A stretch of DNA of 64,000 nt from an uncultured Caldithrix sp. (GTDB lineage: Bacteria; Electryoneota; AABM5-125-24; Hatepunaeales; Hatepunaeaceae): positions 1,110-65,109 of the forward strand of contig CAYHEC010000014.1 in NCBI GenBank assembly GCA_964355675.1, given 5' to 3'. The position numbers and the translations under genes were made by a program. Below the pieces are notes generated by a model. That model had not been told where the DNA came from. It searched no databases and saw nothing but the letters and a program-made list of their open reading frames with translations. Within the stretch, counting starts at the first letter, position 1, and every line of letters starts with the position of its first letter. Shown in pieces: positions 3-63,606 of the stretch.

Positions 3-2660
3 ATGCTCGATCAGTATGCGGCAATCAAAAGCAAGTTTGCCGACGCCATACTGTTTTACCGTATGGGAGATTTTTACGAGATGTTTTACGATGATGCGAA
101 AGCCGCCTCGGAGATTCTCGGTCTTCGTTTGACCTCCCGCGCACACGGCAAAGGCTCGAATGTTCCCCTTGCTGGATTCCCTTATCACCAACTCGATTCC
201 TACCTGAACAAGATGGTCGAAGCAGGTCGTCGCGTCGTTATTGTCGAGCAGGTCGAAGATCCTAAGAAAGCCAAAGGTCTGGTAAAACGAGACGTCGTCA
301 AGATTGTCACAGCCGGGACAAATCCCGCCATGATCGATAGCGACAATCCCAGATCAAGCCGGATTATCGGCTTAATTAAACATGATAGCCGCTGGGGACT
401 TGCCTGGGCAGACATAGGTTCAGGAGAATTTGCCGCCGGTGAATTCGACCATGCCGGCTTAAGAGAAGTTCTCGGACGCATCGATCCGATTGAGATTGTT
501 GTCCCTGCCGGTTCCCCGGAAATAGGGCCAACTCCTGCTGGAGGAAGCCTGCCCCAGGTGATTAGCAAGCAGGAAGATTGGATATGGGAGACCGCATTTG
601 CAAATCGAACATTGCTCGATCATTTCGGAACGGTCGGCTTAAAGGGCTTCGGTATCGATGGGTTGCCTCTGGCGGTTTCTGCGGCGGGGGGCCTGCTATA
701 TTATCTCAAACAAAACCTCAAGAGCCACCCAGCTCACATTACCCGCTTGGCGCTGGAAGAAGCAGGCGGCAAATTGCAGATGGAAAAGGCGATCCGGAAA
801 AATCTTGAGCTTGTCGATTCGCTTTCCGGTAATCATCGCGCCACTCTCTTTTCCTACTGCGACCGAAATGTAACCCAATCCGGAAGACGGCTTCTTCATA
901 ATAGATTGATTGAGCCACTGGCGAACAAAAATCTGATCGATGAACGGCTCGATGCCGTAGCAGAGCTTGTACAGAAGAAAAACCTTCGTGATAAAGTTCG
1001 AGTCCAACTTCGCGAGGCGGGAGATCTGAGTCGCGGATTGGCACGATTGGCCACCGGTCGTGGATCAGCGCGAGATTTGGTTGCTCTACGGGAAACACTG
1101 GCTCTCTTGCCCAAGATTCAAGCAACGTGTGGCTCATCAGACTCACCACTCACCCAATGCTGGGTGAGCCGAATTGCTCTCCTGCCAGAATTGGCTGAAA
1201 AACTTAAAGTGGCGTTGTTGGATGATCCTCCGCTTGCCACCAATGAGGGTGGAATGATTCGAGCCGGGTACGATGCTCAAGTTGACGATTTGCGCGATAT
1301 CCGGTCGGGAGGACAATCATGGCTCGAGCAGTACGAGCGAACCCAACGAGCCGAGACCGGCATTTCCAACCTCAAGATCGCCTACAACCGGGTCTTTAAC
1401 TACTACATCGAGATCACCAAAAGCCACCTCGATAAGGCTCCAGCCACTTACATTCGCCGCCAGACGCTTGTTAATGCTGAGCGTTACACCACCCCTGAAC
1501 TTCAGGCTTACGAAGAAAAACTCATTTCTTCTGAAGAACTTGTCACAGCCCGCGAGTCTGAAATTTTCGCTGAATTGGCGAGTGAAACCCTTACTCATTC
1601 AAAATTAATTCAAGAAACCGCTCAAGCACTGGCCGAGATCGACTTCCTTTCCGGCTTGGCTCAACTTGCCGCTGAAGAGAATCTCCATCGACCAGAACTT
1701 GTGGAAGGGGACACTCTAATTCTTAAAGGCTCTCGCCACCCGGTCGTCGAAAAACTGTTGCCACCCGGGGAGTTGTTCGTTCCCAACGACCTGAACGTCG
1801 GCGGCGATTCTGCTCGCATTCTGATCATCACCGGTCCCAATATGGCAGGCAAGTCAACCTATCTCCGTCAAGTCGCCCTGACTGTAGTGATGGCGCAAGC
1901 CGGATCGTTTGTCCCAGCCGACAAGGCAGTGATCGGCGTCGTCGATAAACTATTCACTCGCATCGGCGCGATGGATAACCTTGCCGGAGGGGAGTCAACC
2001 TTCCTTGTCGAGATGCAAGAGACTGCCTCGATCCTGAACAACGCCACCCGCCGGTCACTGGTGCTATTCGATGAAGTCGGCCGAGGCACTTCGACCTTCG
2101 ACGGACTCAGCCTTGCCTGGGCGATTGTCGAATATCTGCACGAGACCGACCGGCTCAAACCCCGCACTCTTTTCGCCACCCACTTCCACGAAATGGTCGA
2201 TCTGGAGAACATCCTTGCCGGGGTGAAGAACTTCAACGTCGCGGTCCGGGAGGTGGGGGATAAGATAGTCTTCTTGAGGAAGATTGTCCCGGGAGGCTCT
2301 GACCACAGCTTTGGAATTCACGTTGCCCAGATGGCGGGCATTCCCGCTGAGGTGACCAGCCGGGCACGCGAAATTCTTGCCAACCTTGAAGCCAACGACT
2401 TAAATCCAGTTGCCGCCGATCCCGTAGGACGGGCGTCCCTGCCCGTCGATTCAGGAGGATGGGCGTCCCTGTCCGTCGAGGAGGATTCTCCTCGCTCTCG
2501 CCGTCGCTCACCGCAGAAGCACATCGCGCAGTTGTCGTTCTTCGATCCGATTGAGCGCAGGCTTCGTGACCGGCTGGAGGGCGTCGATCCCGACAAGCTG
2601 ACCCCGCTCGAGGCGCTGAAGCTGGTAGTAGAACTGAAGAAATTAGATGGGGGCGCGTAG
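3..2660 (+). CDS. mutS: DNA mismatch repair protein MutS (N-terminus cut by window edge)
   Basis: 885-aa ORF entering from the window edge. Mismatch-binding motif GDFYEMF, Walker A GPNMAGKST, MutS signature STFLVEMQE/DEVGRGTSTFDG. Two in-frame hairpin-repeat copies lie at 2424-2477 in the C-terminal linker. Confidence 0.97.
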   Translation: MLDQYAAIKSKFADAILFYRMGDFYEMFYDDAKAASEILGLRLTSRAHGKGSNVPLAGFPYHQLDSYLNKMVEAGRRVVIVEQVEDPKKAKGLVKRDVVKIVTAGTNPAMIDSDNPRSSRIIGLIKHDSRWGLAWADIGSGEFAAGEFDHAGLREVLGRIDPIEIVVPAGSPEIGPTPAGGSLPQVISKQEDWIWETAFANRTLLDHFGTVGLKGFGIDGLPLAVSAAGGLLYYLKQNLKSHPAHITRLALEEAGGKLQMEKAIRKNLELVDSLSGNHRATLFSYCDRNVTQSGRRLLHNRLIEPLANKNLIDERLDAVAELVQKKNLRDKVRVQLREAGDLSRGLARLATGRGSARDLVALRETLALLPKIQATCGSSDSPLTQCWVSRIALLPELAEKLKVALLDDPPLATNEGGMIRAGYDAQVDDLRDIRSGGQSWLEQYERTQRAETGISNLKIAYNRVFNYYIEITKSHLDKAPATYIRRQTLVNAERYTTPELQAYEEKLISSEELVTARESEIFAELASETLTHSKLIQETAQALAEIDFLSGLAQLAAEENLHRPELVEGDTLILKGSRHPVVEKLLPPGELFVPNDLNVGGDSARILIITGPNMAGKSTYLRQVALTVVMAQAGSFVPADKAVIGVVDKLFTRIGAMDNLAGGESTFLVEMQETASILNNATRRSLVLFDEVGRGTSTFDGLSLAWAIVEYLHETDRLKPRTLFATHFHEMVDLENILAGVKNFNVAVREVGDKIVFLRKIVPGGSDHSFGIHVAQMAGIPAEVTSRAREILANLEANDLNPVAADPVGRASLPVDSGGWASLSVEEDSPRSRRRSPQKHIAQLSFFDPIERRLRDRLEGVDPDKLTPLEALKLVVELKKLDGGA

Positions 2661-2754
2661 GGCGGATTTCCAAATCCGCCACTCCCCCCGCTTGCGGGGG
2701 GAATAAAAGGGGGGTGTCTTCTTCTTCTTCCGTACAACAGGCGTCCCTGCCTGT
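2657..2754. repeat. Three REP-like GC-rich hairpins directly after the mutS stop
   Basis: GTAG-GGCGGATTT-cc-AAATCCGCC (2657-2680; the mutS TAG stop is inside the GTAG head), CCCCCCGCTTGCGGGGGG (2684-2701) and GTAC-AACAGGCGTCCCTGCCTGT (2732-2754). Each type recurs elsewhere in the window. Confidence 0.8.
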
Positions 2755-2846
2755 CACTTGCCCACTTACCCACTTGTCCACTTACCCACTTGCCCACTTG
2801 TCCACTTACCCACTTGCCCACTTGCCCACTTGCCTACTTGCCCACC
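2755..2846. repeat. Tandem octamer array, 11 units of CACTTRYC
   Basis: Perfectly phased 8-bp units run from 2755 to 2842 (cacttgcc/cacttacc/cacttgtc variants) plus a partial unit. The array ends about 25 nt upstream of a sigma70-like -35 box. Confidence 0.9.
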
Positions 2847-2871
2847 TTCGTAATAATTACCCAACAAATCC

Positions 2872-2951: not shown

Positions 2952-4202
2952 ATGGAACTATCTGATAATTTTAATATTGACGACGTCTCTAACCTCGAAA
3001 TCTACGCCTCGCATCTCCTCCGTGCCGGGAGACCTTATGTCGAATATGTACAATCATCGCCCGAATCCGGCTGGCTTTGCAATGACAATGGCAAGCTGAG
3101 ACTTTGCCGCACCCTTTCCATCGCCGGTCGGCAGATCCAGCCGAGACACGGACTCTCCCGCTTGATCGCTTCCGGAGTCATCTCTTCCCCCGCGACAGCC
3201 GATGACAGCCACTCCCTTGACGACCTTTTCGAAGCCGTTCGCGACTGGCTCGCCACCCTTGTCGCCTTTGAGTGCGATTATCACTACACCGCCGCCGCGG
3301 CTTATGTCGTCATTACTTGGTTCGACTTTCTTTACGATGCATTGCCCTACCTTCGCTTTTTGGGCGATTTCGGTTCCGGCAAAACCACCGCTCTCCGCGC
3401 CATGAGTCAACTCTGCTATCGTGCTTTCGCCATATCCGGAGTCGTCAACCCGGCGCCGCTTTTCCGCATAATCCAGGGTGCGAAAGGCACTCTCGCTATC
3501 GACGAAGCCGACCTGAGGACCGGTGAAGTTGCCCGCCTCCTCACAAAAATCCTCAACCACGGCTACACGCGAGGCATTTCGGTTATCCGCCTCTCGTCCC
3601 GTCGCGAAACGGAGGTTTTCGATCCGTTCGGTCCCAAGCTGATCGCCGCGCGCCGTGAGTTTTCCGACGAGGCTCTGGAGAGCCGTTTTCTAACCGTAAG
3701 AATGAAGTCTCGCAAAGACTCGCTTGTGCCATTGTCGGATTCTGACACGATGAAGCGCGCCGCTTTGATTCGCAACGGCTTACTTTTCTGGAGGATGAAT
3801 TATTCTTGTGTTAAGACCGGGCTGAGCCTTTTTCGTCATGGATCGGCGGTTGTGAGGGATGGTTATGAGCCAAGGCTTGCGCAGATTGCGAAGCCGCTTT
3901 TCGACTGTACGCCGGCGTCGCGTCAGAGGGAGTTGGATCAGTTCTTTGAGGTGTTGAATGTGCGGATGGTCGAGATGCGTGCGGGCGGTCTTGAGGCGTA
4001 TCTCAAGGGGATTATAAGACGGGCAAACGAGATTGGAACTTACACACTGCACTTCAACCAGATTTACATGAGCCTAAGTCCCAATTTGCGGCGTCTATAT
4101 TCGAAGCGTCATGTATCTCGAGTGCTGGAGATTCTCGGCTGCGAGCGCCGCCACGGCCGCGACGGCACTTACGTCACCTGGAGTAGCGATGCTCTTGCGT
4201 AG
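2952..4202 (+). CDS. P-loop NTPase, DUF3631-like (primase/integrative-element associated family)
   Basis: 416-aa ORF. Walker A GDFGSGKTT, Walker B-like GTLAIDEAD, then ILNHGYTRG. The order and spacing recall DUF3631 proteins (recognised from memory, not searched). The TAG stop lies inside the GTAG head of the first downstream repeat. Confidence 0.5.
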   Translation: MELSDNFNIDDVSNLEIYASHLLRAGRPYVEYVQSSPESGWLCNDNGKLRLCRTLSIAGRQIQPRHGLSRLIASGVISSPATADDSHSLDDLFEAVRDWLATLVAFECDYHYTAAAAYVVITWFDFLYDALPYLRFLGDFGSGKTTALRAMSQLCYRAFAISGVVNPAPLFRIIQGAKGTLAIDEADLRTGEVARLLTKILNHGYTRGISVIRLSSRRETEVFDPFGPKLIAARREFSDEALESRFLTVRMKSRKDSLVPLSDSDTMKRAALIRNGLLFWRMNYSCVKTGLSLFRHGSAVVRDGYEPRLAQIAKPLFDCTPASRQRELDQFFEVLNVRMVEMRAGGLEAYLKGIIRRANEIGTYTLHFNQIYMSLSPNLRRLYSKRHVSRVLEILGCERRHGRDGTYVTWSSDALA

Positions 4203-4765
4203 GGGCCGGTTTACCGAGCCCAACTCTCGCGCAGGGCCGGTTTACCGAGCCCAACTCTCGCGTAGGGGCCGGTTTACCGAGCCCAACAAATCCCCCTCCG
4301 TAGGTCGGGCCGCCGAGCCCGACAACCGGTACGACAGACTTTAGTCTGTCACCTTATTCTTTTTGGATTGGGCGATAGCGAGCATCATTCTGTTTGGATC
4401 GGGCGATGGCGAGCATCGCCCGTACGGGCGAACCTTGTGTTCGCCCTCTCTATTTACGCGGCAATCCCCGTACAACAGGCGTCCCCGCCTGTCTCCTCAT
4501 CATCCCGGCGCACACCGGTAAGGCCGACAGTTGTCGGCCTCCCAATTTCTAAAAGGCAGGGCGGATAGTTATCCGCCTCGGCGCTAAAGGCGCGCCATCT
4601 CCCCCCGCTTGCGGGGTGCGACTCCATTGAATGGAGTCGCGAAAAGGATGCACTTGAAATGGTTTCGTTCAAAGGGGGGTGTCATAAGCTGTCAACCCTC
4701 TGGGGTTGACATCGGCCGGAGGCTCCGCCGTCACCGCCCTGTCGGTGACGGTACTGCGGGGCTCC
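4197..4765. repeat. About 570-bp ORF-free stack of roughly 17 consecutive GC-rich hairpins of different sequence
   Basis: Three copies of GTAGGGGCCGGTTTACCGAGCCCAAC (4199-4287). GTAG-GTCGGGC..GCCCGAC (4300-4323). GTAC-GACAGAC-ttta-GTCTGTC (4329-4351). GGGCGATG..CATCGCCC-GTAC-GGGCGAAC..GTTCGCCC (4401-4447). GTAC-AACAGGCGTCCCCGCCTGT (4469-4492). GGCCGACAgtTGTCGGCC (4522-4539). GCGGATAgtTATCCGC (4561-4576). CCCCGCTTGCGGGG (4603-4616). GCGACTCCATtgaATGGAGTCGC (4618-4640). GTCAACCCtctgGGGTTGAC (4691-4710). CCGTCACCG..CGGTGACGG (4728-4751). Confidence 0.85.
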
Positions 4766-7082: not shown

Positions 7083-7787
7083 TTCTATTCTATTTCCTTA
7101 AATTTGAATTTAATGATACCTTTTCTTCCGGTGAGGCTTTCTTATTAGCCTCAAGCCACCCAGCCGCTGGTTTTCCCATTAAAGGTCAGATCGTTCCCCA
7201 ACACGACGATATTCTTCGCAGTGTCAGCGACAATCTCTATATGGCTCGTGTCAAGGTTGAACTTTCGCGCCGCCAACCGATTGGCTTCAAGCATTGATTA
7301 CTGAATTCTCCGATTGTTTAATCTCCCCGCCCCAATTTATTGTATAAATGTCGCGAGGATACGTCTATCTTATTTTTTTTCGCTTTAGCGGGAAAGTTAT
7401 GGGTTCACGTCGTTTTCAACCTGTTAGTGTGAAAATGCCTATTGCGAACGTCAGCACTTCTACCTCTACCGCCCGACCGCCTCGCCTCGCCTTCGGCGAA
7501 ACGCCCGTTCTACCGACAATACCAATCTATTCCAAAATCTGCCCCAAGTCAATAGCAAACAGAAGCGGCGTCAGACAAGGACATCTGACGCCACTTAAAT
7601 TATTCAGTAGGGCAGGTCGGGACGCCCTGCCCTACTGAGATTGCTTGCTACACTCGCAGTGATCGATCTCATAAAATTACCAGTCCGATCACGAATCGAT
7701 CACAGAGTTTCTCATTGTAGCGCAACAAAATACGCCGCTCTGTGACTCAGTGATCGATTTTTGACCCCTCACTACTCTAAGTTCACC

Positions 7788-7889: not shown

Positions 7890-10658
7890 ATGTCCGAAAT
7901 TCCAAAGAGCTACGATCCGACCTCCGTCGAGCCGAAGTGGTACAAATTCTGGGAAGAGAACGACCTCTTCCGCACCGATCCGAACTCCGGCAAGGAGCCG
8001 TACTGCATCATGATGCCTCCGCCGAACGTCACCGGCGAACTTCACATGGGGCACGGCTTGCAAGACTCCCTGCAGGATATGCTGATCCGCATGAAGCGGA
8101 TGCAGGGCTTCGAGGCGCACTGGCAAGCCGGAACCGATCACGCCGGCATCGCTACCCAGAACGTCGTCGAGAAAGCGCTCGCCAAGGAAGGCGTGTCGCG
8201 CCACAGCCTCGGCCGGGAGAAGTTCATCGAGAAGGTCTGGGAGTGGAAAGCCAAGTACGGGGACAGGATACTCCAGCAGAAGCGGCTCTTAGGTGACTCG
8301 CCGGACTGGAGCCGCGAACGGTTCACCTTCGATCCGGGGCTTTCCAAAGCCGTGGCGAAGGTGTTCGTGCATCTCTATGACAAGGGGCTGGTGTATCGGG
8401 GGAATTACATCGTCAACTGGTGTCCGCGCTGTCACACGGCGATCTCTGACGAGGAAGTCGATCATAAGGACGAAGCGACGCATTTGTGGTATTTCAGGTA
8501 TCCGATTTTAAATGATTCTTCCGTCGCCGCCCCGTCGGCGATGGATACTGATACACCTGCTGCCACCCACAGGGGGGTGGCAGAAGAGGGACACTACGTG
8601 ACTGTGGCGACGACGCGCCCTGAGACGATGCTGGGCGATACGGCGGTGGCGATCAATCCCAAAGACGAACGATTGCAGCATCTTCGCGGGAGGAGCGTGC
8701 AGCTCCCATTGGTGGATAGAGTTATCCCGATCATTGAAGACGAGTTCGTCGATCCGGCTTTTGGGACGGGGCAGGTGAAAGTGACGCCTGCTCATGATCC
8801 GAACGACTTTGAGATGGGGAAGCGCCACAGCCTCGGATCCATCACAGTGATGGACGAGCATGGGGTAATGAATGATAACGCTGGTCGTTTCAAAGGATTG
8901 GATAGGTTCAAGGCGCGTGAGGCGATTGTGGAGGCGATGGGGGAGGCGGGGTTGTTGGAGAAGATAGAGGATTATACTACCTCCATTGGCCACTGCTCGC
9001 GGTGCAAGACGGTCATCGAGCCGTACCTCTCTCTGCAGTGGTTCGTGAAGATGAAGCCACTCGCCGAGCCTGCCCTTGAGGCTGTTCGTGACGGGCGGAT
9101 CAAGTTCTATCCGGGACGTTGGGAGAAGGTCTATTACTCATGGCTGGAGAACGTGCGGGACTGGTGCATCTCGCGGCAGCTTTGGTGGGGGCATCGGATA
9201 CCGGTGTGGTACTGCCAGGCTTGCGGGGAGGTGATTGTCAGGGAAGAGGAGCCTGATACTTGTCCGAAGTGCCACTCGAACAGTCTCAGGCAGGATGAGG
9301 ATGTGCTCGATACGTGGTTTAGTAGCTGGCTCTGGCCATTTTCAACCTTGGGGTGGCCCGAAGAGACGCCTGAGCTTAAAAAATGGTATCCGACGCAGTT
9401 GCTCGTTTCGGGCTATGACATCATCTTCTTCTGGATCGCGCGGATGATTATGGCGGGGCTGGAATTCATGGGCGACATCCCGTTCAGCGACATCTTCATT
9501 ACGGGCATGATTAAGGACGAGCAGGGGCGGTGGATGTCGAAGTCGCTCGGCAATGGCATCGACCCGGAGGCGATGGTCAAGCAGTACGGGGCCGACGCGG
9601 TGCGGTTCACTATGATAACGCTGGCGACGGAGGGGCAGGACATCAAGCTAACGCCGTCGCGGTTTGAGGGAGGGAGGAATTTTGCCAATAAACTGTGGAA
9701 TGCGTACCGGTTTCTGATGACTCATGTGGAGAAACTGCCTGAGGAAAATAGGAGCCAAATTGGCAAGTATCCAATCACTGAGATGCCTTCCGATGCTCCC
9801 CTCGTGGATCGGTGGATTGTCTCACGACTGGCGGCGACGGTCGAACAGGTTCATGCGTCGGCGGAGAAGTACCGGTTGTTTGAGTGTCTTAACGCCCAGT
9901 ATGATTTCCTCTGGAAGGAGTTCTGTGACTGGTATCTGGAGCTTATTAAAAACCGGTTGACGCCTGAGACTCCGGCATTTGACCGTCAGTTGACGCTTGA
10001 GGTCGCGTTGCAGGTATTCGAAGCGGCGATGCGGCTGTTGCATCCGGCGATGCCGTTTGTGACGGAAGAGATTTGGCAGGGAGTTTCAGCACAAGTAGCG
10101 TTGACAATTGTCAACGCTACTGCAACTCAGAAGTCGATTATGGTGGCGGAATATCCGAAGCCGGGGGAATATCCAAGGGACTTGAAGGCTGAGGAGCAGA
10201 TCGAGTTGTTCCAGCGTGTCGTTGCGGCAGTCAGGAACATTCGTGGCGAAATGCATGTTCCACCCGACCGGAGGGCAGTACTGGTAGTGTCGGGCGTGAA
10301 AGATGAAGGGAAGAAGATGTTATTTGAGCGGCTGTCAAGTGATATTTGTCGTCTCGCAAACTTGTCGGAAATCAGCTTTGGCAACTCTCGCCCGGCACAC
10401 TCAGCTTCGGCAATGATAGATGATTTCGAGCTGTTTGTGCCGTTGGAAGGCTTGATCGACATCACGGTAGAACAAGGGAGACTCGACAAGGAGATTGCGA
10501 GACTTGAAGGCTCGATCAAAGGCGCTGAGGCAAGGCTTGCTTCGCCAAACTTCACTGACAAGGCTCCGGCGAATGTGGTGGAGTTTGAGCGGCAGAAGTT
10601 GGTGGAGTCGAAGGCACAGCTTGAGGCGGTGAAAAGGAATAGGGAGGCGTTGGAATGA
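7890..10658 (+). CDS. valS: Valine--tRNA ligase
   Basis: 922 aa. HIGH motif (PPNVTGELHMGH), KMSKS motif (WMSKSLGN), ValRS segment ATTRPETMLGDTAV, C-terminal coiled coil. Carries an in-frame hairpin-containing insertion at about 8520-8600. Confidence 0.97.
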   Translation: MSEIPKSYDPTSVEPKWYKFWEENDLFRTDPNSGKEPYCIMMPPPNVTGELHMGHGLQDSLQDMLIRMKRMQGFEAHWQAGTDHAGIATQNVVEKALAKEGVSRHSLGREKFIEKVWEWKAKYGDRILQQKRLLGDSPDWSRERFTFDPGLSKAVAKVFVHLYDKGLVYRGNYIVNWCPRCHTAISDEEVDHKDEATHLWYFRYPILNDSSVAAPSAMDTDTPAATHRGVAEEGHYVTVATTRPETMLGDTAVAINPKDERLQHLRGRSVQLPLVDRVIPIIEDEFVDPAFGTGQVKVTPAHDPNDFEMGKRHSLGSITVMDEHGVMNDNAGRFKGLDRFKAREAIVEAMGEAGLLEKIEDYTTSIGHCSRCKTVIEPYLSLQWFVKMKPLAEPALEAVRDGRIKFYPGRWEKVYYSWLENVRDWCISRQLWWGHRIPVWYCQACGEVIVREEEPDTCPKCHSNSLRQDEDVLDTWFSSWLWPFSTLGWPEETPELKKWYPTQLLVSGYDIIFFWIARMIMAGLEFMGDIPFSDIFITGMIKDEQGRWMSKSLGNGIDPEAMVKQYGADAVRFTMITLATEGQDIKLTPSRFEGGRNFANKLWNAYRFLMTHVEKLPEENRSQIGKYPITEMPSDAPLVDRWIVSRLAATVEQVHASAEKYRLFECLNAQYDFLWKEFCDWYLELIKNRLTPETPAFDRQLTLEVALQVFEAAMRLLHPAMPFVTEEIWQGVSAQVALTIVNATATQKSIMVAEYPKPGEYPRDLKAEEQIELFQRVVAAVRNIRGEMHVPPDRRAVLVVSGVKDEGKKMLFERLSSDICRLANLSEISFGNSRPAHSASAMIDDFELFVPLEGLIDITVEQGRLDKEIARLEGSIKGAEARLASPNFTDKAPANVVEFERQKLVESKAQLEAVKRNREALE

Positions 10659-13001: not shown

Positions 13002-13245
13002 GGGGGCTCGTAAACGGCCCCTACGCGACGAAGGGAGGGCATGTAAACGGGAGGGCTCGTAAACGGCCCCTACGCGACGAAGGGAGGGCATGTAAACGGG
13101 AGGGCATGTAAACGGAGGGCACGTAAACGGCCCCTACGCGACGAAGGGAGGGCATGTAAACGGGGGGCTCGTAAACGGGGGGCACGTAAACGGCCCCTAC
13201 GCGGGATGACGAATAGAGGGGGGGCTCGTAAACGGCCCCTACGCG
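13002..13245 (+). repeat. Tandem array of family-A repeats (GGGGCTCGTAAACGGCCCCTACGCG and truncated variants)
   Basis: About ten GTAAACGG cores in 244 bp. The full unit is a bulged hairpin GGGGC(T)CG-TAAA-CG-GCCCC followed by CTAC (a GTAG head on the other strand). Confidence 0.9.
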
Positions 13246-13269
13246 GGGATGAAACTCACAATAAATTGA

Positions 13270-14652
13270 ATGGTACCAATGCCAACAAAACTATCACTTG
13301 CGTCAGCGCTTCTGCTAAGCTCCATTTTCCATTTTCCATCTTCCATTAAAGCCGAAGTCGCCGTTACCATTTACAACCAGAACCTCGCCCTCGTCCGCGA
13401 GGTGCGCCAGCTTGACTTCCCCAAGGGCGTCGGCCAACTCCGCTTCACCGACGTCGCGTCGGAGATTATCCCGACGTCAGTGCACTTCACCAGCGACAAA
13501 GCCGCACTCCTCGAGCAAAACTACGAGTACGACCTCGTGAGTTCGGACAAACTGCTCGAGAAATACATCGATCAACGGGTGGAGATTGTTTCGCTTGACG
13601 GCAAGAGCTTTTTCGGGTCGTTACTATCGTCGGGAGGGGATATTGTGCTAAGGTTAGATGGTGGGACACCCCCCCCTGCCCCCCCCGCAAGCGGGGGGGG
13701 AAAGTCTGGCGAATTGGTCTCGATTACCCGTTCGCAGGTTGCCAATGTCCGGTTCCCTGAGCTACCGGAAGGACTCATCACCCGCCCGACACTAGTCTGG
13801 CTGGTCGATGGCAAGGGCGGCAAGAGCGACGCTGACATCTCCTACCTGACGAGAGGAATCTCGTGGGAATCGGAGTATGTTGCCGTCTCGGACGTAAAGG
13901 ACGAAAACCTCTCACTGACCGGGTGGGTGAACATTACGAATAATTCCGGGGCGACGTACAAGGATGCGCGGTTGAAACTGATGGCAGGGGACGTGAATAT
14001 CGAACAGCCTCGAAGAAAATTCGCACGCGACGAAGTTCAAGAATTGTCAGGCGGATTTAATGCTGAATACGGTTTTCAAGAACAAGCGTTTTACGAGTAC
14101 CACCTCTATACCCTTCAGCGTCCCTCGACCATCGCCGACAAGCAGGTGAAGCAAGTGTCGCTGTTTCCGACGGCTTCAACGCCGGTGAAGAAGGAATTCC
14201 GACTCAAGGCGAACGAGGAAAAGGTTACAGTTGTCCTTGAGTTTGAAAACCGTGAGAAGGTCGGGCTGGGCATACCGCTTCCCAAGGGGAAGGTGCGGGT
14301 CTATAAGCAGGGTCCTGATGGCGGGCAGGAATTCATCGGCGAAGACAACATCGACCATACTCCCAAGGATGAAAAAGTCCGCATCACGACCGGTAAAGCG
14401 TTTGATATTGTTGGCGAGCGGAAATCGATCAACTACGAGCGCCAAGGCAAACAGCGTGAGAATGAGATTGTCGTCCGCAATCATAAGAAGGAGACCATCG
14501 AGGTTGTCATCGAAGACTCGTTCTGGGGGGATTGGAAATTTATCGAAGCGACCGACGGCTGGGAGAAGAAGAATGCCAGCCTCGTTGAGTGGAAAGTGAA
14601 GATCAAGCCGGACGGGGAGGCGAAGGTTAGGTATAAGGTTTATGTTAATTAA
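13270..14652 (+). CDS. Secreted DUF4139/DUF4140-like protein
   Basis: 460 aa with a signal peptide. VTIYNQNLALVRE...LEQNYEYDLVS resembles the DUF4139 family (from memory). The internal low-complexity patch GGTPPPAPPASGGGKSG is encoded by a hairpin repeat at 13681-13698. Confidence 0.55.
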   Translation: MVPMPTKLSLASALLLSSIFHFPSSIKAEVAVTIYNQNLALVREVRQLDFPKGVGQLRFTDVASEIIPTSVHFTSDKAALLEQNYEYDLVSSDKLLEKYIDQRVEIVSLDGKSFFGSLLSSGGDIVLRLDGGTPPPAPPASGGGKSGELVSITRSQVANVRFPELPEGLITRPTLVWLVDGKGGKSDADISYLTRGISWESEYVAVSDVKDENLSLTGWVNITNNSGATYKDARLKLMAGDVNIEQPRRKFARDEVQELSGGFNAEYGFQEQAFYEYHLYTLQRPSTIADKQVKQVSLFPTASTPVKKEFRLKANEEKVTVVLEFENREKVGLGIPLPKGKVRVYKQGPDGGQEFIGEDNIDHTPKDEKVRITTGKAFDIVGERKSINYERQGKQRENEIVVRNHKKETIEVVIEDSFWGDWKFIEATDGWEKKNASLVEWKVKIKPDGEAKVRYKVYVN

Positions 14653-16412: not shown

Positions 16413-16681
16413 GGGGGCTCGTAAACCGGCCCCTACGCGGATGATTGGTTGGTGGTGCATGGCCGGGGCTCGTAAACGGCCCCTACGCGGGTGATTGGTT
16501 GGTGGTGCATGGCGGGGGCTCGTAAACGGACGGGGCTCGTAAACGGACGGGCTCGTAAACGGACGGGCTCGTAAACGGCCCCTACGCGGGTGGCACGTAG
16601 ACAGACGGGGCTCGTAAACGGCCCCTACGCGGATGATTGGTTGGTGGTGTATGGCCGGGGCTCGTAAACGGCCCCTACGCG
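16413..16681 (+). repeat. Second tandem array of family-A repeats
   Basis: About nine GGGGCTCGTAAACGG(CCCCTACGCG) units in the same orientation as the 13002-13245 array, interspersed with a repeated spacer GATGATTGGTTGGTGGTGCATGGCC. Confidence 0.9.
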
Positions 16682-16694
16682 ATTGAGTTGAAAT

Positions 16695-44572: not shown

Positions 44573-44573
44573 A

Positions 44574-44694: not shown

Positions 44695-45705
44695 ATGTCA
44701 AATCTGCTCACGGCAAAGGATCTTGCCGACTATAAACTGATTGGCGAACTGAAACTTAGGATTGAGAAAGAGACCGATAGTCGTTGCCTGATCGATGAAT
44801 CGCTTGCCAAGCATACATCGTGGAGAGTCGGCGGTCCGGCAAGATTGTATGCCTACCCGTCATCGGGTATGGCGCTTGCAAATTTGATTCAATTTTGTAA
44901 CTTCGAAAGACTGGCATTTTTTACAATCGGATATGGAACGAACTTGCTGGTTTCAGACGATGGATTTGCGGGGTGCGTGATCGACCTTGCGGAAGGCGCC
45001 CGAAATATCTCAGTGGGGCGGACAACTGTCCGCCCTACCGCCCCGGACGAAGAACTGAGTGCTGGCGGGGGAGCCTGGCTGGGGGAGGTGGTGCGGATAG
45101 CGGCTGAACACGGGCTTAGCGGAATGGAAAGACTTGCCGGGATACCCGGCGGTGTTGGCGGGGGGATGTCGATGAACGCGGGGGCGTTTGGAATGTCGAT
45201 ATCAGATTGTCTGGTGGAGGCAACGGTAGTCGATAAGAACGGTGTGACAACGGTTATAAAGAAAGATGACGTTGGTTTTGGGTATCGTAGCGCACCAGGA
45301 ATTGCTGGAAAAACGGTTACAGAAACAATTTTCCACCTGAAAAAAGAGCACAAGAGCAGGATTATTCGCACAGTAGAATCGACAATTACTGATCGATTTC
45401 GCCGTAACGTGATGACTTTACCATCGGCGGGGAGCGTCTTCAAGAACCCAATCGGAGGCTTTTCCGCGAAAATGGTCGAAGCTGTAGGCGGAAAAGGGTT
45501 AAGGGAAGGGGGCGTCGAAGTATCGCAGTTGCACGGCAATTTTATCGTCAACACAGGCGCTGGGAATGCATCGGACATCGTGAAGCTCATTAATCGAATT
45601 AGGTCGATGGTTCGCGAACGCTTTGATGTATCGCTCGAGTTGGAAGTGAGAACGCTCGGCTTTGTCGGCGACATTCTCGAAGATTATAAAACCAAGGTTA
45701 TCTAA
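44695..45705 (+). CDS. murB: UDP-N-acetylenolpyruvoylglucosamine reductase
   Basis: FAD-binding PCMH-type N-terminus (GGPARLY, GYGTNLLV), GIPGGVGGGMSMNAGAFG, SAGSVFKNP. Carries an in-frame hairpin repeat at 45021-45048. Confidence 0.94.
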   Translation: MSNLLTAKDLADYKLIGELKLRIEKETDSRCLIDESLAKHTSWRVGGPARLYAYPSSGMALANLIQFCNFERLAFFTIGYGTNLLVSDDGFAGCVIDLAEGARNISVGRTTVRPTAPDEELSAGGGAWLGEVVRIAAEHGLSGMERLAGIPGGVGGGMSMNAGAFGMSISDCLVEATVVDKNGVTTVIKKDDVGFGYRSAPGIAGKTVTETIFHLKKEHKSRIIRTVESTITDRFRRNVMTLPSAGSVFKNPIGGFSAKMVEAVGGKGLREGGVEVSQLHGNFIVNTGAGNASDIVKLINRIRSMVRERFDVSLELEVRTLGFVGDILEDYKTKVI

Positions 45706-47820: not shown

Positions 47821-48101
47821 ATGATCGGTAGCGCGGCGATTTATCGCGCCATTCGTCCCAAACGGCATTACAGGCGCGATAAATCGCTGCGCTACCGCAA
47901 CCATCAGTTATAGGCGCGATAAATCGCTGCGCTACCGCAACCATCAGTTTTAGGCGCGATAATTCGCTGCGCTACCGCAACCATCAGTTATAGGCGCGAT
48001 AAATCGCTGCGCTACCGCAACCATCAGTTTTAGGCGCGATAATTCGCTGCGCTACCGCAACCATCAGTTACAGGCGCGATAAATCGCTGCGCTACCGCAA
48101 C
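47821..48101. repeat. Family-E repeat array between ftsA and ftsZ
   Basis: One forward copy ATGATCGGTAGCGCGGCGATTTATCGCGCC, a 20-nt spacer, then six reverse copies at an exact 40-bp period (47871 to 48071). They alternate two variants, giving an 80-bp higher-order repeat. Same architecture as 20099-20347. Confidence 0.93.
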
Positions 48102-48257
48102 TGTCAGTGTTGGTGTGACACAACACGAAGGTATTAGGGCAACAAGCCCGAAGTTTGACACCATGAGCGGCTCACATAGAGATTCGAGGCACAACTATCG
48201 ACAAGATAGCGTTATGAAAAATTGTCAAAATCATAAAATTTCTGGAGAAAGAAGGAA

Positions 48258-49574: not shown

Positions 49575-49615
49575 ATTAGCAGGGCGGATAGCCATCCACC
49601 CTACGATTCGCCTCG

Positions 49616-50520: not shown

Positions 50521-50576
50521 AGAGTGCAATATCCTCACTTATACTAAGTTGCATTCATTGGGACACCATTGTAATT

Positions 50577-50712
50577 GTTTTCAGTACGACAGACATTCTT
50601 GTCTGTCACAAAATACAATACTTTAGACAATCTCTGTTTTCGGAGACAGACAGGAATGTCTGTCGTACTGAAAACAACTTAGTATTAGGACGGACAGGAG
50701 TGTCCGCCCTCC
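50577..50712. repeat. Inverted pair of family-H repeats plus one family-D hairpin
   Basis: GTTTTCAGTACGACAGACATTCTTGTCTGTC (50577-50607) with its reverse complement at 50645-50675 (one mismatch). GGACGGACAGGAGTGTCCGCCCTCC at 50688-50712. Confidence 0.88.
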
Positions 50713-50735
50713 ATGAAGGAAATTCCAAGGTCGAT

Positions 50736-52600: not shown

Positions 52601-52639
52601 GAATTTCTAAGTGGCGTAGAATTATGGTGAATTCACTTA

Positions 52640-52750
52640 GAGGGCGGCTTTTCTTATCAAGCAGACAACAGGGCGGACAAGAGTGTCCGCCCTCCAAGAG
52701 CAAAAGTACTAACAGCGCTAAGGGCGGACTGAAAGTCCGCCCTCCAAGGG
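52640..52750. repeat. Family-D hairpins (GGGCGGAC-N-GTCCGCCCTCCAAG)
   Basis: Full copies at 52671-52700 and 52721-52750, with a partial copy at 52640-52654. Confidence 0.88.
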
Positions 52751-54592: not shown

Positions 54593-54623
54593 CTGTACAG
54601 GCAAATTTATTCGCCCGATAAAG

Positions 54624-54823
54624 ACGGCGATTGAAATCGCCGGTACTGGTGCGGTTTAGAGGACAAACTGAAGTTTGAACTCTGAACTCAGGTCCGCCCA
54701 GCAAAGCTGTGCGGCTACACGCGGCTGGGGTTTGCTGTCAACCCCAGAGGGTTGACAGCTTGCTGGGAAGCTGTGCGGCTACAAGCAATATTAATTTGCT
54801 ACCGACCACGGCGGGTCGGTAGC
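54624..54823. repeat. Mixed hairpin block (families L, G, M, K)
   Basis: ACGGCGATTGAAATCGCCGGTAC (54624-54646). CCCAGCAAAGCTGTGCGGCTACACGC (54696-54721). GCTGTCAACCCCAGAGGGTTGACAGC (54735-54760), which is the reverse orientation of 4688-4710. GCTACCGACCACGGCGGGTCGGTAGC (54798-54823). Confidence 0.85.
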
Positions 54824-55735: not shown

Positions 55736-55825
55736 ATATATTTGAAGCAATTGATTTTGTACGCTAATGCAGAAAACAAATAATCGCATTGCTGACCGCG
55801 GCGGGTCGGCAGTGGATTCTTCAAG

Positions 55826-56806
55826 GTGACCTTCGCCGTTCAAATAGAGAACTTCACTCGCTCCTACGGAGACGTTCAGGCAGCCAAAGAGTTGACTTTT
55901 TCGGTCAGGGAGGGCGAATTATTCGGCTTAATCGGCCCTGATGGTGCGGGTAAAACCACAACGATGCGAGCATTATGCGGGCTCATCACGCGGGACAGCG
56001 GCACAATGTCGATCTTCGGGATCGATCCGGAAGGATACCCTCGCAAAGTTCGTGAGTTAATCGGCTACATGCCTCAACGGTTCAGCCTCTATCCCGACCT
56101 GACCGTCGCTGAAAATTTGCGTTTCTTCGCCGATCTTTATCTTGTGCCGACGGATGAACGCCAACGCCGCGAGGAACGGCTCATGCGATTCTCCCGACTT
56201 GGTCCCTTTCGCGACCGACGAGCCTTGCAATTATCCGGCGGAATGAAGCAAAAGCTCGCCCTCTCCTGTACCCTGATTCATACTCCCAGACTGCTGATAC
56301 TTGACGAACCGACCACAGGCGTCGATCCGGTCAGCCGGCGGGAATTCTGGTCAATACTGAAAGAACTGTCTGCGGAGGGCATCTCAATTGTCGTTTCAAC
56401 GCCCTACATGGACGAGGCTCTTCTTTGCGACCGGACAGCGCTGATGCACAAAGGAAAAACGTTAGTGGTCGGGACTCCATCACAGATCACTGAGCTTTAT
56501 CCCCACATCCTCATCGAGGCAACGGCTGAGAATCTTCAGGATATCCGACAGAAGTTGATCGCCTCAGGAATTGACTCAAATCATTTACATCGATTTGGCG
56601 GCAGACTCCATATCGCCTGCAACAATCCCGGGGAGGCTGAACGAGTATCCACGTTAGTACGAGAGGCTGGCGGACAAGCGTCAAGGGCGTCGCCATCCAT
56701 CGAAGACACTTTTGTGGCAATAGTCGGTAAGCTTGATGATGAAAACCGCGCAGTGGGGCGGACAACTGTCCGCCCCACTGATGACCAAATGGCTTCCTTG
56801 CCGTAA
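55826..56806 (+). CDS. ABC transporter ATP-binding protein (YbhF-like half 1)
   Basis: GPDGAGKTT, LSGGMKQKL, LILDEPT. The C-terminal tail (..AVGRTTVRPTDDQMASLP) is encoded by repeat hairpins. Confidence 0.9.
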   Translation: MTFAVQIENFTRSYGDVQAAKELTFSVREGELFGLIGPDGAGKTTTMRALCGLITRDSGTMSIFGIDPEGYPRKVRELIGYMPQRFSLYPDLTVAENLRFFADLYLVPTDERQRREERLMRFSRLGPFRDRRALQLSGGMKQKLALSCTLIHTPRLLILDEPTTGVDPVSRREFWSILKELSAEGISIVVSTPYMDEALLCDRTALMHKGKTLVVGTPSQITELYPHILIEATAENLQDIRQKLIASGIDSNHLHRFGGRLHIACNNPGEAERVSTLVREAGGQASRASPSIEDTFVAIVGKLDDENRAVGRTTVRPTDDQMASLP

Positions 56807-56872
56807 GGTGTCCTCACCTTGCGGCGATATTGACTTTCACAATTACTTGTCGCAGGGTGAGGACACCCTGCG
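56801..56872. repeat. Inverted pair of family-J hairpins
   Basis: CCGTAAGGTGtcctCACCTTGCGG (56801-56824, contains the TAA stop) and CGCAGGGTGaggaCACCCTGCG (56851-56872). Related to the recG-downstream hairpin. Confidence 0.8.
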
Positions 56873-56893
56873 ACACCGAACAGCCTCCCATCA

Positions 56894-58840: not shown

Positions 58841-59020
58841 CCCGCCCAGCAAAGCTGTGCGGGCTACACACGCTTAGGAGTTTCGAATGCTGTGCGGGCT
58901 ACACGCCCTTAGGGATTTCGAAGCTGTGCGGGCTACACGCCCTTAGGGATTTCGAAGCTGTGCGGGTTACACACGCTTAGGCGTTTCGAATGCTGTGCGG
59001 GCTACACGCGCTTAGGCGTT
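58841..59020 (+). repeat. Five tandem family-G repeats between the two permease genes
   Basis: GCTGTGCGGGCTACACGC(C/G)CTTAGG(N)TTTCGAA units start at 58853, 58889, 58923, 58957 and 58992, with a 34-36 bp period. Confidence 0.9.
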
Positions 59021-59056
59021 TAGTCAGTAGCCTCGAGAAATAGTACGAAAAATTTT

Positions 59057-62282: not shown

Positions 62283-63365
62283 ATGAAATCAATCTCCCAA
62301 TCCCTGCTATTGATAGCAACCATCGTTTTGATAGCGAACGAAGCGGTAGCTATGCCGGAATTTGGCGTTCGATACAATCAGAGTTGCCAACTGTGTCATG
62401 TCGTTCCAACCGGTGGCGGGATGAGAGCCCTCTACGGAGCACAGTTCTTCAGCTACATGGACTTGCCTATGAAAGAGCTTGATGATTTCGCCCTTCTCGA
62501 CTCGATCAATCCGAAAATAGGAAGGCATTTTCAGGTCGGCGTCGATTTTCGTTCGCTTTACTATAGTTCCAATGATACTCTTTCAGGTAACAGTTTTGTG
62601 ACCATGGAAGGGACGCTTTACACCACAATTGCCCCGACAGACCGAACCATGGTTTACCTTTCGCGATCACTGTATGGTTCCAGTGAGGCTTTTGCTCTAA
62701 TACAGGGATTGCCTTACTCCTCGGTATTTAGAGGGGGCCGGTTTATGCCTGCCTATGGTTGGAAGTTTGTCGATCATAACAGCTATGTCAGAAGCCGCCT
62801 TGGCTATGGTCAAGGCAAAGGCGCCGAGGATGGTTTGGAGTACGGATTCTACCCGTTGGAATGGGAGGCGTCCGTTGCCTTGACTAACGGATCGTTGGGG
62901 ATTGTCGATGGCAATCGCGGGAAAGTGTTAACCACAAGGGCTTTGAAGAGATTAGTTGCAGGATATTTCAATATAACCGGGGGTATGAGCTGGCGCTACG
63001 CGGAATTCGATATGGGTAAGGGGTTGGCGACGCCGGGCTTGCAACGATATGGCGGACCGTTTTGGGGAATAAATTGGGGACCAATCACCTATCTCGGAGA
63101 AATAGACTGGATTGTAACCAGCAAGAGAGAACTCGCTTTAACTCATTCGTTAGGATATATGCTGAAGCGAGGAATGTATGTCACGGCGCAGTACGACTTC
63201 TACGACCCAAATCTGGACGTGAAAAATGGTTATGAGTGGCGCGGGAGAGTCGGCGCGGACCTGTTTCCGACGGGTTATCTTGAACTTCTGCCCGGATTTG
63301 TCTGGGAGCGGCGTTCTGGCAAAGAACATGGAACCGGGGAACTTCAACTCCATGTCTGGTTTTAG
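62283..63365 (+). CDS. Candidate fused monohaem cytochrome-porin (Cyc2-like architecture)
   Basis: Signal peptide (..IANEAVA), CQLCH 12 residues into the mature protein, then about 320 aa of amphipathic beta-strand pattern ending in ...LQLHVWF (C-terminal Phe, as in OM barrels). Confidence 0.45.
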   Translation: MKSISQSLLLIATIVLIANEAVAMPEFGVRYNQSCQLCHVVPTGGGMRALYGAQFFSYMDLPMKELDDFALLDSINPKIGRHFQVGVDFRSLYYSSNDTLSGNSFVTMEGTLYTTIAPTDRTMVYLSRSLYGSSEAFALIQGLPYSSVFRGGRFMPAYGWKFVDHNSYVRSRLGYGQGKGAEDGLEYGFYPLEWEASVALTNGSLGIVDGNRGKVLTTRALKRLVAGYFNITGGMSWRYAEFDMGKGLATPGLQRYGGPFWGINWGPITYLGEIDWIVTSKRELALTHSLGYMLKRGMYVTAQYDFYDPNLDVKNGYEWRGRVGADLFPTGYLELLPGFVWERRSGKEHGTGELQLHVWF

Positions 63366-63405
63366 TACAAAAACTGAACCCGGCAAACTTTAATATTGTG
63401 GTACT

Positions 63406-63606
63406 CTTGGAGGGCGGACTTTCAGAGTTCGTTGATTTATTCGCTTGGGACGCCAATTCGGACAAGATTCTCTTGGAGGGGGGGCTTCAGCCCGCCCTTG
63501 TTTGTGCTTGATTGTCCTTTAGGGGGGGCTGAAGCCCCCCCTCCAAGAGGATCAAATCTCTACTCGAACGAATAAATCAACGAACTCTGAAAGTCCGCCC
63601 TCCAAG
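63406..63606. repeat. 201-bp nested palindrome (MITE-like)
   Basis: Perfect 38-nt inverted arms: CTTGGAGGGCGGACTTTCAGAGTTCGTTGATTTATTCG at 63406-63443 with its reverse complement at 63569-63606. They enclose two inner family-D-like hairpins (63471-63500 and 63521-63548). Confidence 0.9.

Follow-up and report, generated by a model that had tools for sequence, protein, structure and literature searches.

The whole stretch of DNA that we analysed (the window, 64,000 nucleotides) carries at least 14 families of REP/REPIN-type hairpin repeats, and these match a superfamily of GTAG-tagged REPs already described (Di Nocera 2013, PMC3733652). Their density in the gaps between genes is real and was confirmed by scanning for stem-loops (at least 7 bp of stem, a loop of 3–8 nt, no more than one mismatch): the 8,375 non-coding bases held 62 hairpins (7.4 per kb), and the 55,625 coding bases held 91 (1.6 per kb). 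When the non-coding segments were shuffled with their dinucleotides preserved, 10.6 ± 3.6 hairpins were obtained (maximum 18) where the actual segments had 58, and the density of GC-rich hairpins in non-coding DNA was five times the shuffle expectation. Similarly, 13-mers occurring at least twice made up 31.8% of the non-coding bases of the window but 4.6% of its coding bases, and GTAG or GTAC adjoined 20 of the 53 GC-rich non-coding hairpins compared to 5 of 61 coding hairpins. All 12 families described in the first-pass annotation were recovered, either exactly where it had placed them or a few bases away (Table 1). Beyond these we found family A2, families P and Q, whose stem is of the GGCGGA type, and singletons at positions 4300, 4400-4446, 4618 and 32416. 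Transcription terminators were ruled out, as a T-run accompanied only 2 of 53 hairpins, and so was known RNA, the only Rfam matches in the window being two tRNAs.

Table 1 Hairpin repeats of the window, by position
Position	Strand	Elements
2424..2480	+	Family B x2, in frame in mutS C-terminal linker; first is GTAG-headed
2657..2760	+	Post-mutS cluster: hairpin Q GTAG-GGCGGATT (TAG = mutS stop), C (CCCCCCGCTTGCGGGGGG + AAGGGGGGTGTC), GTAC-headed B
4197..4713	+	Dense cluster 3' of P-loop gene, heads on + strand: A2 x3 (first TAG = gene's stop), GTAG-GTCGGGC hairpin, H, hairpin pair with one common GTAC (4400-4446), B, 4521 hairpin, Q, C, 4618 hairpin, M
7498..7638		Partial B copy, head on - strand (7498-7515); 35-nt B palindrome, GTAG at each end (7604-7638)
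10094..10121		Perfect 28-nt palindrome AGTAGCGTTGACAATTGTCAACGCTACT within valS
13002..13247	-	Family A array, 5 full copies of GTAGGGGCCGTTTACGWGCCC + partial units
13665..13702		Family C copy within DUF4139 gene
16413..16682	-	Family A array, 5 copies + partial units
16691-16720		Separate terminator-like hairpin after second family A array
18907..19046		Family J hairpin (TGCCGCAGGGTG..CACCCTGCGGCA), 71-nt tandem duplication including 3' end of recG
20099..20349	-	Family E, one + and one - copy as REPIN-like pair; - copy amplified, 6 units of ~34 nt
24893..25010	-	F x2 (CGCGTAG-GATAAGCGTCTCGCTTGTC) interleaved with D-type hairpins ending CCAAG
30521..30979	-	REP copies flanking tRNA-Gly(CCC) on both sides: D palindrome 30521-30556; D-F-D 30716-30806; P/Q 30851-30880; F-D 30902-30979
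32331..32497		Inverted B pair enclosing K + 32416 hairpin
33208..33300		Family G REPIN-like inverted pair, outward heads, spacer ~27 nt
44569..44692		Family L, 43-nt unit x2.7 (GTACTGCCGATTTAAATCGGCAGTAC); first GTAG = murC stop
45010..45037	-	Hairpin P, GTAG-GGCGGACA, 27-nt in-frame insertion in murB, encodes GRTTVRPTA
47821..48108	-	Family E in ftsA/ftsZ gap, one + copy, six - copies of 40-nt unit
49579..49604	-	Q-type hairpin 3' of ftsZ, GTAGGGTGGATggctATCCGCCCT read on - strand
50575..50716		Family H REPIN-like pair, extended arms 24 nt, then D
52636..52750	-	D x3, inner stems differing by compensating changes
54620..54823	-	Cluster: GTAC-tailed hairpin, G, M, G, K
55787..55812		K-like hairpin TGCTGACCgcggcgGGTCGGCA
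56751..56875		P palindrome at ABC ATPase gene 3' end, then J x2
58841..59023	-	Family G array, 5 copies, unit ~34 nt
63404..63608		Nested inverted D-type arms, outer 40 nt, inner 24 nt

Anatomy of the elements and known REP systems

Head conservation was scored on copies anchored by the hairpin body alone. In this alignment the tetranucleotide was invariant whereas positions further upstream varied. Families A, B, E, F, G and Q share an invariant GTAG, often CGCGTAG, that abuts the stem; the upstream consensus is CGCGTAG in families A (9 copies) and F (4 copies), GCGYGTAG in family G (5 copies) and ..g...cGGTAG in family E (27 copies). The original description of the repeats as GTAG- or GTAC-headed throughout therefore holds for these families and for H and L, which have GTAC, but not for C, J, K and M, which have no head, or for D, which has CTT-GGAG where its GGCGGA-stem relatives have GTAG. 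Likewise, four stop codons had been attributed to the TAG of a head, and this stands for mutS, the P-loop gene and murC. At ftsZ, however, 6 nt separate the GTAG from a hairpin that carries its head on the opposite strand, and the overlap of this GTAG with the stop is probably a coincidence.

The stems show bulges and compensating changes. Singletons, inverted pairs and tandem arrays are all present, in agreement with the first-pass annotation; head-to-head pairs occur in families B, E, G and H, tandem clusters are found too, and family E forms a stereotyped REPIN-like doublet of ~140 nt (10 doublets, all with a spacer of ~23 nt). The P copy at the 3' end of the ABC ATPase gene encodes the same peptide as the murB insertion, GRTTVRPT. 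Our observations thus support the anatomy of a GTAG-tagged REP, with a 5' tetranucleotide, an imperfect GC-rich palindrome, an arrangement as singletons, pairs and clusters, and TAG stops supplied by the head.

The GTAG superfamily includes E. coli REP/BIME, Pseudomonas REPs and Stenotrophomonas SMAGs (BMC Genomics 14:522; PMC3733652). It has in common with the elements of the window palindromes of 20–40 nt, stems of 6–13 bp, some of them bulged, one end bearing an unpaired GTAG, sub-families set apart by compensating stem changes, sites 3' of genes with the head's TAG serving as stop codon, in-frame copies in replication/repair genes (here mutS and murB) and several families in one genome. 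The features that had been flagged (TAG stop overlap, intragenic repair-gene copies, co-existing families and clusters) are individually all in Di Nocera et al. 2013. What does remain unusual against published surveys is the number of co-existing families, as strains of Pseudomonas and Stenotrophomonas have "several REP classes" and no more than four RAYTs each (PMC3686654), compared to at least 14 families within 64 kb here. The GTAC and GGAG tag variants and the extended common head CGCGTAG are absent from the tags of the Di Nocera survey, and head-to-tail tandem arrays, rare in that survey, are prominent here. The host is Calditrichota-like; the survey covered 8 phyla, possibly including the host's. 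As in REPIN-RAYT systems (Bertels & Rainey 2011, PLoS Genet 7:e1002132; RAREFAN), an inverted doublet with a conserved spacer behaves as the repeated unit in family E, doublets are also formed by D, G and H, and families persist across diverged genomes; in contrast to those systems, many families here are mainly singletons or head-to-tail arrays rather than doublets.

Mobility and strand polarity

Comparison with related genomes supports the elements being multi-copy and mobile. A search with a family E 22-mer matched 12 metagenome loci and one MAG locus, which also contain C, D, F and M copies beside unrelated genes. Comparing intergenic regions between related genomes, a check suggested by the first-pass annotation, showed the same families in related metagenome contigs at sites that are not orthologous. 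In the dcw cluster of two relatives, L039 and L041, they occupy different gaps from those of the window: the ftsA-ftsZ gap measures 454, 228 and 41 nt in the window, L039 and L041, respectively, and ftsE and ftsX, which overlap in the window, are separated in L039 by 303 nt of REPs. The 27-nt murB insertion is missing from two orthologues. REP sequences are near-identical across genomes whose genes share about 70% nucleotide identity; when the window is compared with L004, REP copies are 96–100% identical and coding DNA 70–72%. A close relative (L041/L046) has far fewer copies, and another (L045) has none of these families.

Unpaired copies carried the head on the C-rich strand in all 28 cases scored in two genomes. 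In the window, 5 heads lie on the + strand and 0 on the - strand at 1-7.1 kb, and 0 and 10, respectively, at 7.5-64 kb; the corresponding counts are 7 and 0 in the C-rich part of L039, 0 and 1 at its G-rich end, and 0 and 5 in L044 (G-rich; same sample as L039). The + strand encodes the dcw genes in the window and in L039 alike whereas the REP heads are on opposite strands, thus head orientation follows the replication strand and not transcription. Orientations were mixed on short metagenome contigs of weak or uncertain skew, and L029 has 3 copies contrary to the rule. This strict orientation to the replication strand is a new aspect compared to known REPs, and it points to a replication-coupled process on single-stranded DNA.

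Strand specificity tied to replication is a signature of IS200/IS605-type single-strand transposition (PMC3333891; PMC6006769). The IS200/IS605 elements (IS608, ISDra2; Ton-Hoang et al.) share with the repeats a hairpin, a tetranucleotide 5' of the foot, an orientation tied to replication direction and the absence of an obvious target duplication, but the repeats carry no transposase and their tagged strand is the C-rich strand, the reverse of the active strand expected on the lagging-strand template. Since the GTAG-hairpin strand lies on the presumed leading-strand template, its polarity is opposite to a simple IS608 analogy. The GTAG-hairpin strand is the strand that E. coli TnpA-REP binds. 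An intergenic REP-like 18-nt palindrome in Caldithrix abyssi, aAACCGTTgaAACGGTTt, from the same phylum (Kublanov et al. 2017, Front Microbiol 8:195), likewise avoids gene upstream regions and switches orientation at the predicted replication origin. It differs in being one AT-richer motif of about 40 copies without a GTAG tag, and is absent from the window and the relatives examined.

Candidate routes of spread

We consider it probable that these REP/REPIN elements are non-autonomous GC-rich hairpins with a conserved tetranucleotide at the 5' foot (GTAG, GTAC or GGAG, often extended to CGCGTAG) that are moved by RAYT-type enzymes encoded elsewhere; mobilisation by RAYTs is suggested by the anatomy and the replication-strand orientation bias. 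At the replication fork, REPs would be recognised while folded in single-stranded DNA, the tetranucleotide acting as recognition tag and the hairpin as binding site; one or more HUH/Y1 tyrosine transposases of the RAYT (TnpA-REP) type, with genes at other sites of the genome, would then cut and rejoin them. Arrays could grow and shrink through slippage or unequal recombination, and operon-internal copies would be transcribed and may influence mRNA stability as in E. coli. The statement that the window holds no RAYT gene was upheld by a phmmer search with E. coli RayT, by Pfam and by scanning for motifs; neither the window nor ~170 kb of related, non-redundant contigs yielded a Y1/HUH transposase by these methods, and there we also saw no REPtron (a RAYT gene flanked by its own REPs) and no cognate single-copy RAYT of the REPIN-RAYT kind. 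RAYTs occur about once per several hundred kb, so this absence is uninformative.

Several observations argue against RAYTs, among them the polarity opposite to that of IS608 and the mixed orientations on short contigs described above. At least 14 families demand many cognate RAYTs or one enzyme with several hairpin targets, published strains have at most four (PMC3686654), and families C, J, K and M are untagged. In addition, the TA...TA ends and imperfect outer inverted repeats of the family E doublets (~140 nt) also fit a TA-duplicating DDE-type MITE. It is conceivable, though unlikely, that the palindromes spread without a RAYT, through a DDE transposase acting on MITE-like doublets (TA-duplicating IS630-type) or with no dedicated transposase. 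Imperfect outer inverted repeats are also present on the L041 D doublets, no RAYT was found in the sequence searched, and CGTC-tagged REPs without an associated transposase have been described (PMC3733652). However, the A, F, G and Q singletons have no inverted repeat outside the hairpin and carry the invariant (CGC)GTAG exactly where RAYTs use it, the TA borders belong to the palindrome and require no duplication, with no other direct duplication visible, and no DDE transposase was seen beside any copy. Nor would double-strand DDE transposition be expected to tie orientation to the replication strand.

Less likely still is that the hairpins are mainly functional host signals kept alike by selection, either strand-polar chromosome-organising or protein-binding sites or mRNA 3'-end/stabiliser structures, although such a role is compatible with mobility as a secondary one. 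REP conservation is above that of genes, the orientation is replication-polar like that of KOPS- and Chi-type motifs, copies lie mainly 3' of genes and within operons, and Caldithrix abyssi has its strand-specific 18-mer (PMC5317091). Selection alone, however, does not yield identical sequences at non-orthologous sites, in-frame copies within murB, mutS and valS, or tandem arrays that vary in length between samples. The scarcity of copies in L041/L046 and their lack in L045 also speak against host signals, at least 14 unrelated sequences are unlikely to serve one function, and the hairpin mismatches show no G.T versus A.C asymmetry of the kind expected for a preferred folded (RNA) strand. Artefacts of metagenome assembly, such as chimeric joins or collapsed repeats, are very improbable. 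Short-read contigs from other samples do stop within repeats (L003 at window positions 48072 and 50570, NODE_3124 near 63457) and array lengths vary among assemblies, but independent assemblies from ENA and Logan reproduce the window with 100% identity except that the family E array differs in copy number (+100 nt and -80 nt), with three independent assemblies matching over 13–23 kb, and the same families recur in unrelated samples and in one GTDB MAG.

Repeat families and their conserved head

All twelve families of hairpin repeats lettered in the first-pass annotation (A–M) are present at the places it listed, with 2–14 copies each at 2–8 loci, and at least 14 sequence families are found within the 64 kb when A2, P/Q and several singletons are added. 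Repeated 13-mers, which we used instead of 10-mers because the latter drowned in chance matches, cover 31.8% of non-coding bases compared to 4.6% of coding bases. The 8.4 kb of non-coding DNA contain 58–62 hairpins whose stem is 7 bp or longer; 58 were observed in the comparison with dinucleotide-preserving shuffles, which gave 10.6 ± 3.6, and their density is 7.4 per kb in non-coding compared to 1.6 per kb in coding DNA. The repeats are thus short (20–40 nt) imperfect palindromes concentrated in intergenic DNA, as in the GTAG REP superfamily. Intrinsic (Rho-independent) terminators were rejected for these hairpins because a T-run (at least 4 T within 9 nt) accompanies just 2 of the 53 GC-rich non-coding ones. 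We also rejected a known RNA family, the gathering-score Rfam matches being tRNA-Gln and tRNA-Gly only, and a CRISPR-like reading of the arrays, whose units are identical and whose 12–17-nt linkers are identical between units. No region displayed an asymmetry between G·T and A·C mismatches, a marker of the folded strand or of RNA-level selection.

GTAG or GTAC adjoins 20 of the 53 GC-rich non-coding hairpins but only 5 of 61 coding ones. An initial association test between tetranucleotides and hairpins, which tolerated several offsets and discriminated poorly, was replaced by alignments anchored on the hairpin body only. In these, the four bases touching the stem (the head, or tag) are invariant and the bases further out are variable, which disposes of the concern that the head might be no better conserved than its flanks. 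GTAG is invariant in A, E (27 copies at 13 loci), F, G and part of B and Q, with the upstream consensus ..g...cGGTAG in E, CGCGTAG in A and F, and GCGYGTAG in G. H and L carry GTAC. Family D carries GGAG, as CTT-GGAG, at the exact position where hairpins with the same GGCGGA stem carry GTAG. The description of all families as GTAG/GTAC-headed therefore holds for A, E, F, G, H, L and part of B and Q, but not for D, nor for C, J, K and M, which have no head and so lack the conserved unpaired tag of the superfamily that the tagged families share. Because the extended head CGCGTAG is common to hairpins of otherwise unrelated sequence, there is a hint that one enzyme may serve several families. The TAG of the head doubles as a gene stop codon at 2657, 4199 and 44569, as first reported. 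At the ftsZ stop, where the same had been proposed, the hairpin close by carries a head of its own on the opposite strand, and the GTAG there is therefore probably a coincidence.

The repeat regions are not assembly artefacts, since other assemblies made independently from this population (ENA ERZ4201063 and ERZ4201064, Logan ERR3856787) reproduce the window with 100% identity except for one tandem array, which varies in length. The 40-nt family E array in the ftsA–ftsZ gap (window 47868–48108) differs by +100 nt and −80 nt between same-population assemblies (contigs L001 and L002), reflecting either real copy-number variation or short-read collapse. Short-read contigs from other samples end within REP arrays or clusters (L003 at window 48072 and 50570; NODE_3124 at ~63457), which points indirectly to multiple copies of the repeats in the genome. 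They are also a practical cause of fragmentation, with short-read assemblies of these organisms breaking at intergenic regions.

Copy organization and turnover among relatives

The repeats occur as singletons, inverted pairs and tandem arrays, in agreement with the original description. In metagenome contigs, family E forms a stereotyped doublet of ~140 nt, in which a conserved 23-nt spacer lies between two inverted GTAG hairpins and imperfect inverted repeats form the outer borders; across 10 aligned doublets the arms, the spacer and the outer repeats are all conserved. This doublet is a REPIN-like unit (an inverted REP doublet). Each of the two family E sites in the window contains one, followed by tandem amplification of one arm. 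L041, a contig of a relative, has two copies of a family D doublet with conserved flanks. The inverted doublet with conserved spacer, the replicating unit of REPINs, is thus present among these repeats. The window also shows further traits of the GTAG REP superfamily: dimers and clusters, placement after genes, stops derived from the tag, and in-frame intragenic copies. The latter lie in four genes (murB, mutS, valS and an ABC ATPase gene), and in-frame REP insertions are thereby shown in the essential genes murB and mutS.

The window has a GC content of ~50% and encodes mutS, valS, a dcw cluster (murE/F to ftsZ), ftsEX, ABC transporters and several proteins with T9SS sorting tails. The nearest homologues of its FtsZ and ValS are 69–82% identical, the named ones belonging to Calditrichaeota/Calditrichota MAGs. 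Look-ups with exact proteins lengthened the window by just 1.1 kb on its left side and not at all on its right. The families are repeated beyond this stretch: a 22-nt family E pattern matched 12 metagenome contigs, which also hold copies of C, D, F and M beside housekeeping genes unrelated to those of the window, and window families likewise lie beside unrelated genes in L039, L044 and L041. Among GTDB representative genomes the sole match to the E pattern was one locus, in a MAG filed under Caldithrix. Scans of viral contigs with 16-mers of G, E and A gave single chance matches only, with no other family nearby.

Orthologous dcw clusters of two relatives (L039 and L041) carry the same families in different gaps. 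In L039, family G lies between murF and mraY, and a 303-nt REP block separates ftsE and ftsX, which overlap in the window; the ftsA–ftsZ gap measures 454 nt in the window, 228 nt in L039 and 41 nt in L041. The window and L004 share 96–100% identity in their REP copies compared to 70–72% in coding DNA. Something keeps the repeats uniform, either continued copying or a conserved protein that recognizes them. By comparisons such as these the repeats are both multi-copy and mobile. The REP load varies by lineage, the L041/L046 genome having few copies. On the contig of the closest ValS relative (L045, 82% identity) the families of the window are all lacking, and other, CACTAC-ending hairpins occur, indicating that REP repertoires turn over between close lineages.

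Strand polarity and candidate mechanisms of spread

From 7.9 kb onward the + strand of the window is G-rich by GC3 skew (third codon positions), with genes of both orientations agreeing. To the left the + strand is C-rich (mutS −0.16, P-loop gene −0.20, methylase gene −0.18); the sign changes at 7083–7889, valS being at +0.27 and values beyond it positive too. This switch resembles a replication origin. However, a DnaA-box search there found no cluster, so an origin at 7.1–7.9 kb is unconfirmed. The relative L044 keeps mutS and valS in synteny, both of them G-rich, and the changed replication direction is therefore specific to the window genome.

We scored the unpaired copies of A, A2, B, D, E, F, G and H in the window for orientation. 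Left of the switch five heads lie on the + strand and none on the −; right of it none lie on the + strand and ten on the −. The dcw genes of L039 lie on the + strand, like those of the window, but have a GC3 skew of −0.29, and 7/7 unpaired heads are on the + strand; at the end of this contig the skew turns positive and the single copy there is reversed. In L044, from the same sample as L039, the + strand is G-rich and 5/5 heads are on the − strand. Overall, heads lie on the C-rich strand in all 28 unpaired copies (five regions, two genomes), whatever the direction of transcription, the strand-specific orientation to replication that is typical of IS200/IS605-type elements. Short metagenome contigs, whose skew is uncertain, showed mixed orientations, L029 accounting for three exceptions. 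The REP literature that we searched contained no description of such a strand preference. Caldithrix abyssi has a similar strand preference of a different, 18-nt REP-like palindrome (PMC5317091); this 18-mer was absent from the window and from the relatives examined.

The E. coli RAYT (TnpA-REP, a Y1/HUH tyrosine transposase, PF01797) binds a folded single strand and requires a 5' GTAG (PMC3333891), and the related IS200/IS605 transposases act strand-specifically at the replication fork (PMC3333891, PMC6006769); the polarity observed here therefore fits a RAYT-like mobilization of single-stranded hairpins. We consider this the likeliest mechanism, with moderate confidence: the hairpins would be mobilized as folded single-stranded DNA by RAYT-like Y1 transposases, the putative enzyme cleaving the folded strand and transferring it. 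No RAYT gene was found in the window, as had been noted, or in ~170 kb of non-redundant related loci, a sample too small to show absence from the genome. These searches comprised a motif scan (regular expression for HUH, W[QE] and Y..NP), phmmer with E. coli RayT (from NC_000913.3; E ≤ 1) against six-frame ORFs of the window and related loci, and Pfam searches of unannotated ORFs, ORFs beside repeats and the Pfam lists of related contigs. Furthermore, IS608-type elements have the opposite polarity: here the tagged strand is the C-rich one, the presumed leading-strand template. Because no Y1/HUH gene was found and the tagged strand is the reverse of the IS608 analogy, RAYT mobilization is something we infer. 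The reversal could be due to a different source of single-stranded DNA, or to preferential loss of copies in the excisable orientation.

Less probably, the polarity might instead be that of a purely functional strand-polar signal. For the doublets, a DDE-type MITE mechanism, also less probable, could account for the imperfect inverted repeats at the outer ends of E and D and for the TA at both borders of the E doublets, which may be a duplication or part of the palindrome. However, no other target duplication was seen, and in the singleton families inverted repeats do not extend past the hairpin.

The repeat anatomy is that of the GTAG REP superfamily, for which the tag, co-existing families, dimers and clusters, TAG stops and copies in repair genes have already been shown (PMC3733652). 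Since every feature flagged in the first-pass annotation has been described for that superfamily, the repeats belong to an already known kind. The first-pass annotation had called so many co-existing families unusual. The number does exceed published strains, which have "several" REP classes and four RAYTs at most, but co-existence as such is not new. What stands out is the number of families, their intergenic share, the GTAC and GGAG tags, the many head-to-tail arrays and the strictness with which unpaired copies are oriented to the replication strand.

Few bacterial repeats are as abundant as REPs, whose mode of spread is still debated, mostly on evidence from Proteobacteria. The present repeats extend the GTAG type to a poorly studied phylum, and their many families, many unpaired copies and clear polarity make them a natural test of fork-coupled spread and of the template strand, one that E. 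coli and Pseudomonas, in which REPs are mostly paired, cannot offer. Tentatively, and thinking it rather unlikely in full, we propose a Calditrichota lineage in which at least 14 REP families fill about a third of intergenic DNA, with a common (CGC)GTAG head on hairpins of unrelated sequence and the tagged strand of unpaired copies always C-rich, and in which one or a few RAYT-like or novel enzymes would read mainly the tag plus a generic hairpin on one template strand. If so, the fork polarity would be the reverse of that seen with IS608-type elements and the repeats would double as replichore-polar marks on the chromosome.

Other features of the window

Repeat copies, RNA genes, tandem repeats and islands in the window and on related contigs (window positions unless a contig is named)
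Feature	Position	Remark
Inverted pairs of repeats	33208–33300, 50575–50677, 32331–32497, 20099–20173
GTAG-GGCGGACA hairpin, 27 nt	45010–45037	in frame in murB; adds GRTTVRPTA, without counterpart in two orthologues
REP-encoded GRTTVRPT	56751–56781	C-terminus of ABC ATPase; same as MurB insertion peptide
Family B copies		inside mutS linker
28-nt palindrome GTAG...CTAC		inside valS
Extra family CAGACGCCCTCGTCTG (GGCGGACGCCCTCGTCCGCC)	L039 1327–1441, 8407–8515, 9773–10000, 11381–11469, 13266–13568; L029 2066–2085	relatives only, not in window
CACTAC-ending hairpins	L045 6568–6715, 8476–8655
Unique terminator-like hairpins (examples)	16691–16720, 50488–50515, 60242–60275	apart from the repeats
tRNA-Gly(CCC)	30570–30642	in REP-rich gap; D palindrome directly upstream, D/F copies downstream
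tRNA-Gln(CTG)	23075–23146	no REP copies nearby
Simple tandem repeat CACTTGCC x11	2755–2845	upstream of P-loop gene; unrelated to hairpin families
Tandem repeat, 38-nt unit x3	27144–27258	unrelated to hairpin families
Tandem repeat AAGGTT x10	46462–46524	ftsQ–ftsA junction; unrelated to hairpin families
Tandem repeat TGGTCGA x4	54558–54587	unrelated to hairpin families
Variable island	2952–7082; L044 6397–9811	between mutS and valS
Second N6_N4 methylase gene	10655–12271	overlaps valS end

The island of the window (GC 42–44%) encodes a 416-aa P-loop NTPase with a weak nSTAND match only, a 371-aa protein of unknown kind and an N6_N4 DNA methylase, and is probably a restriction-modification locus. 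L044 has instead a HepT/MNT toxin-antitoxin pair, a T9SS protein and Arr-ms at this site.
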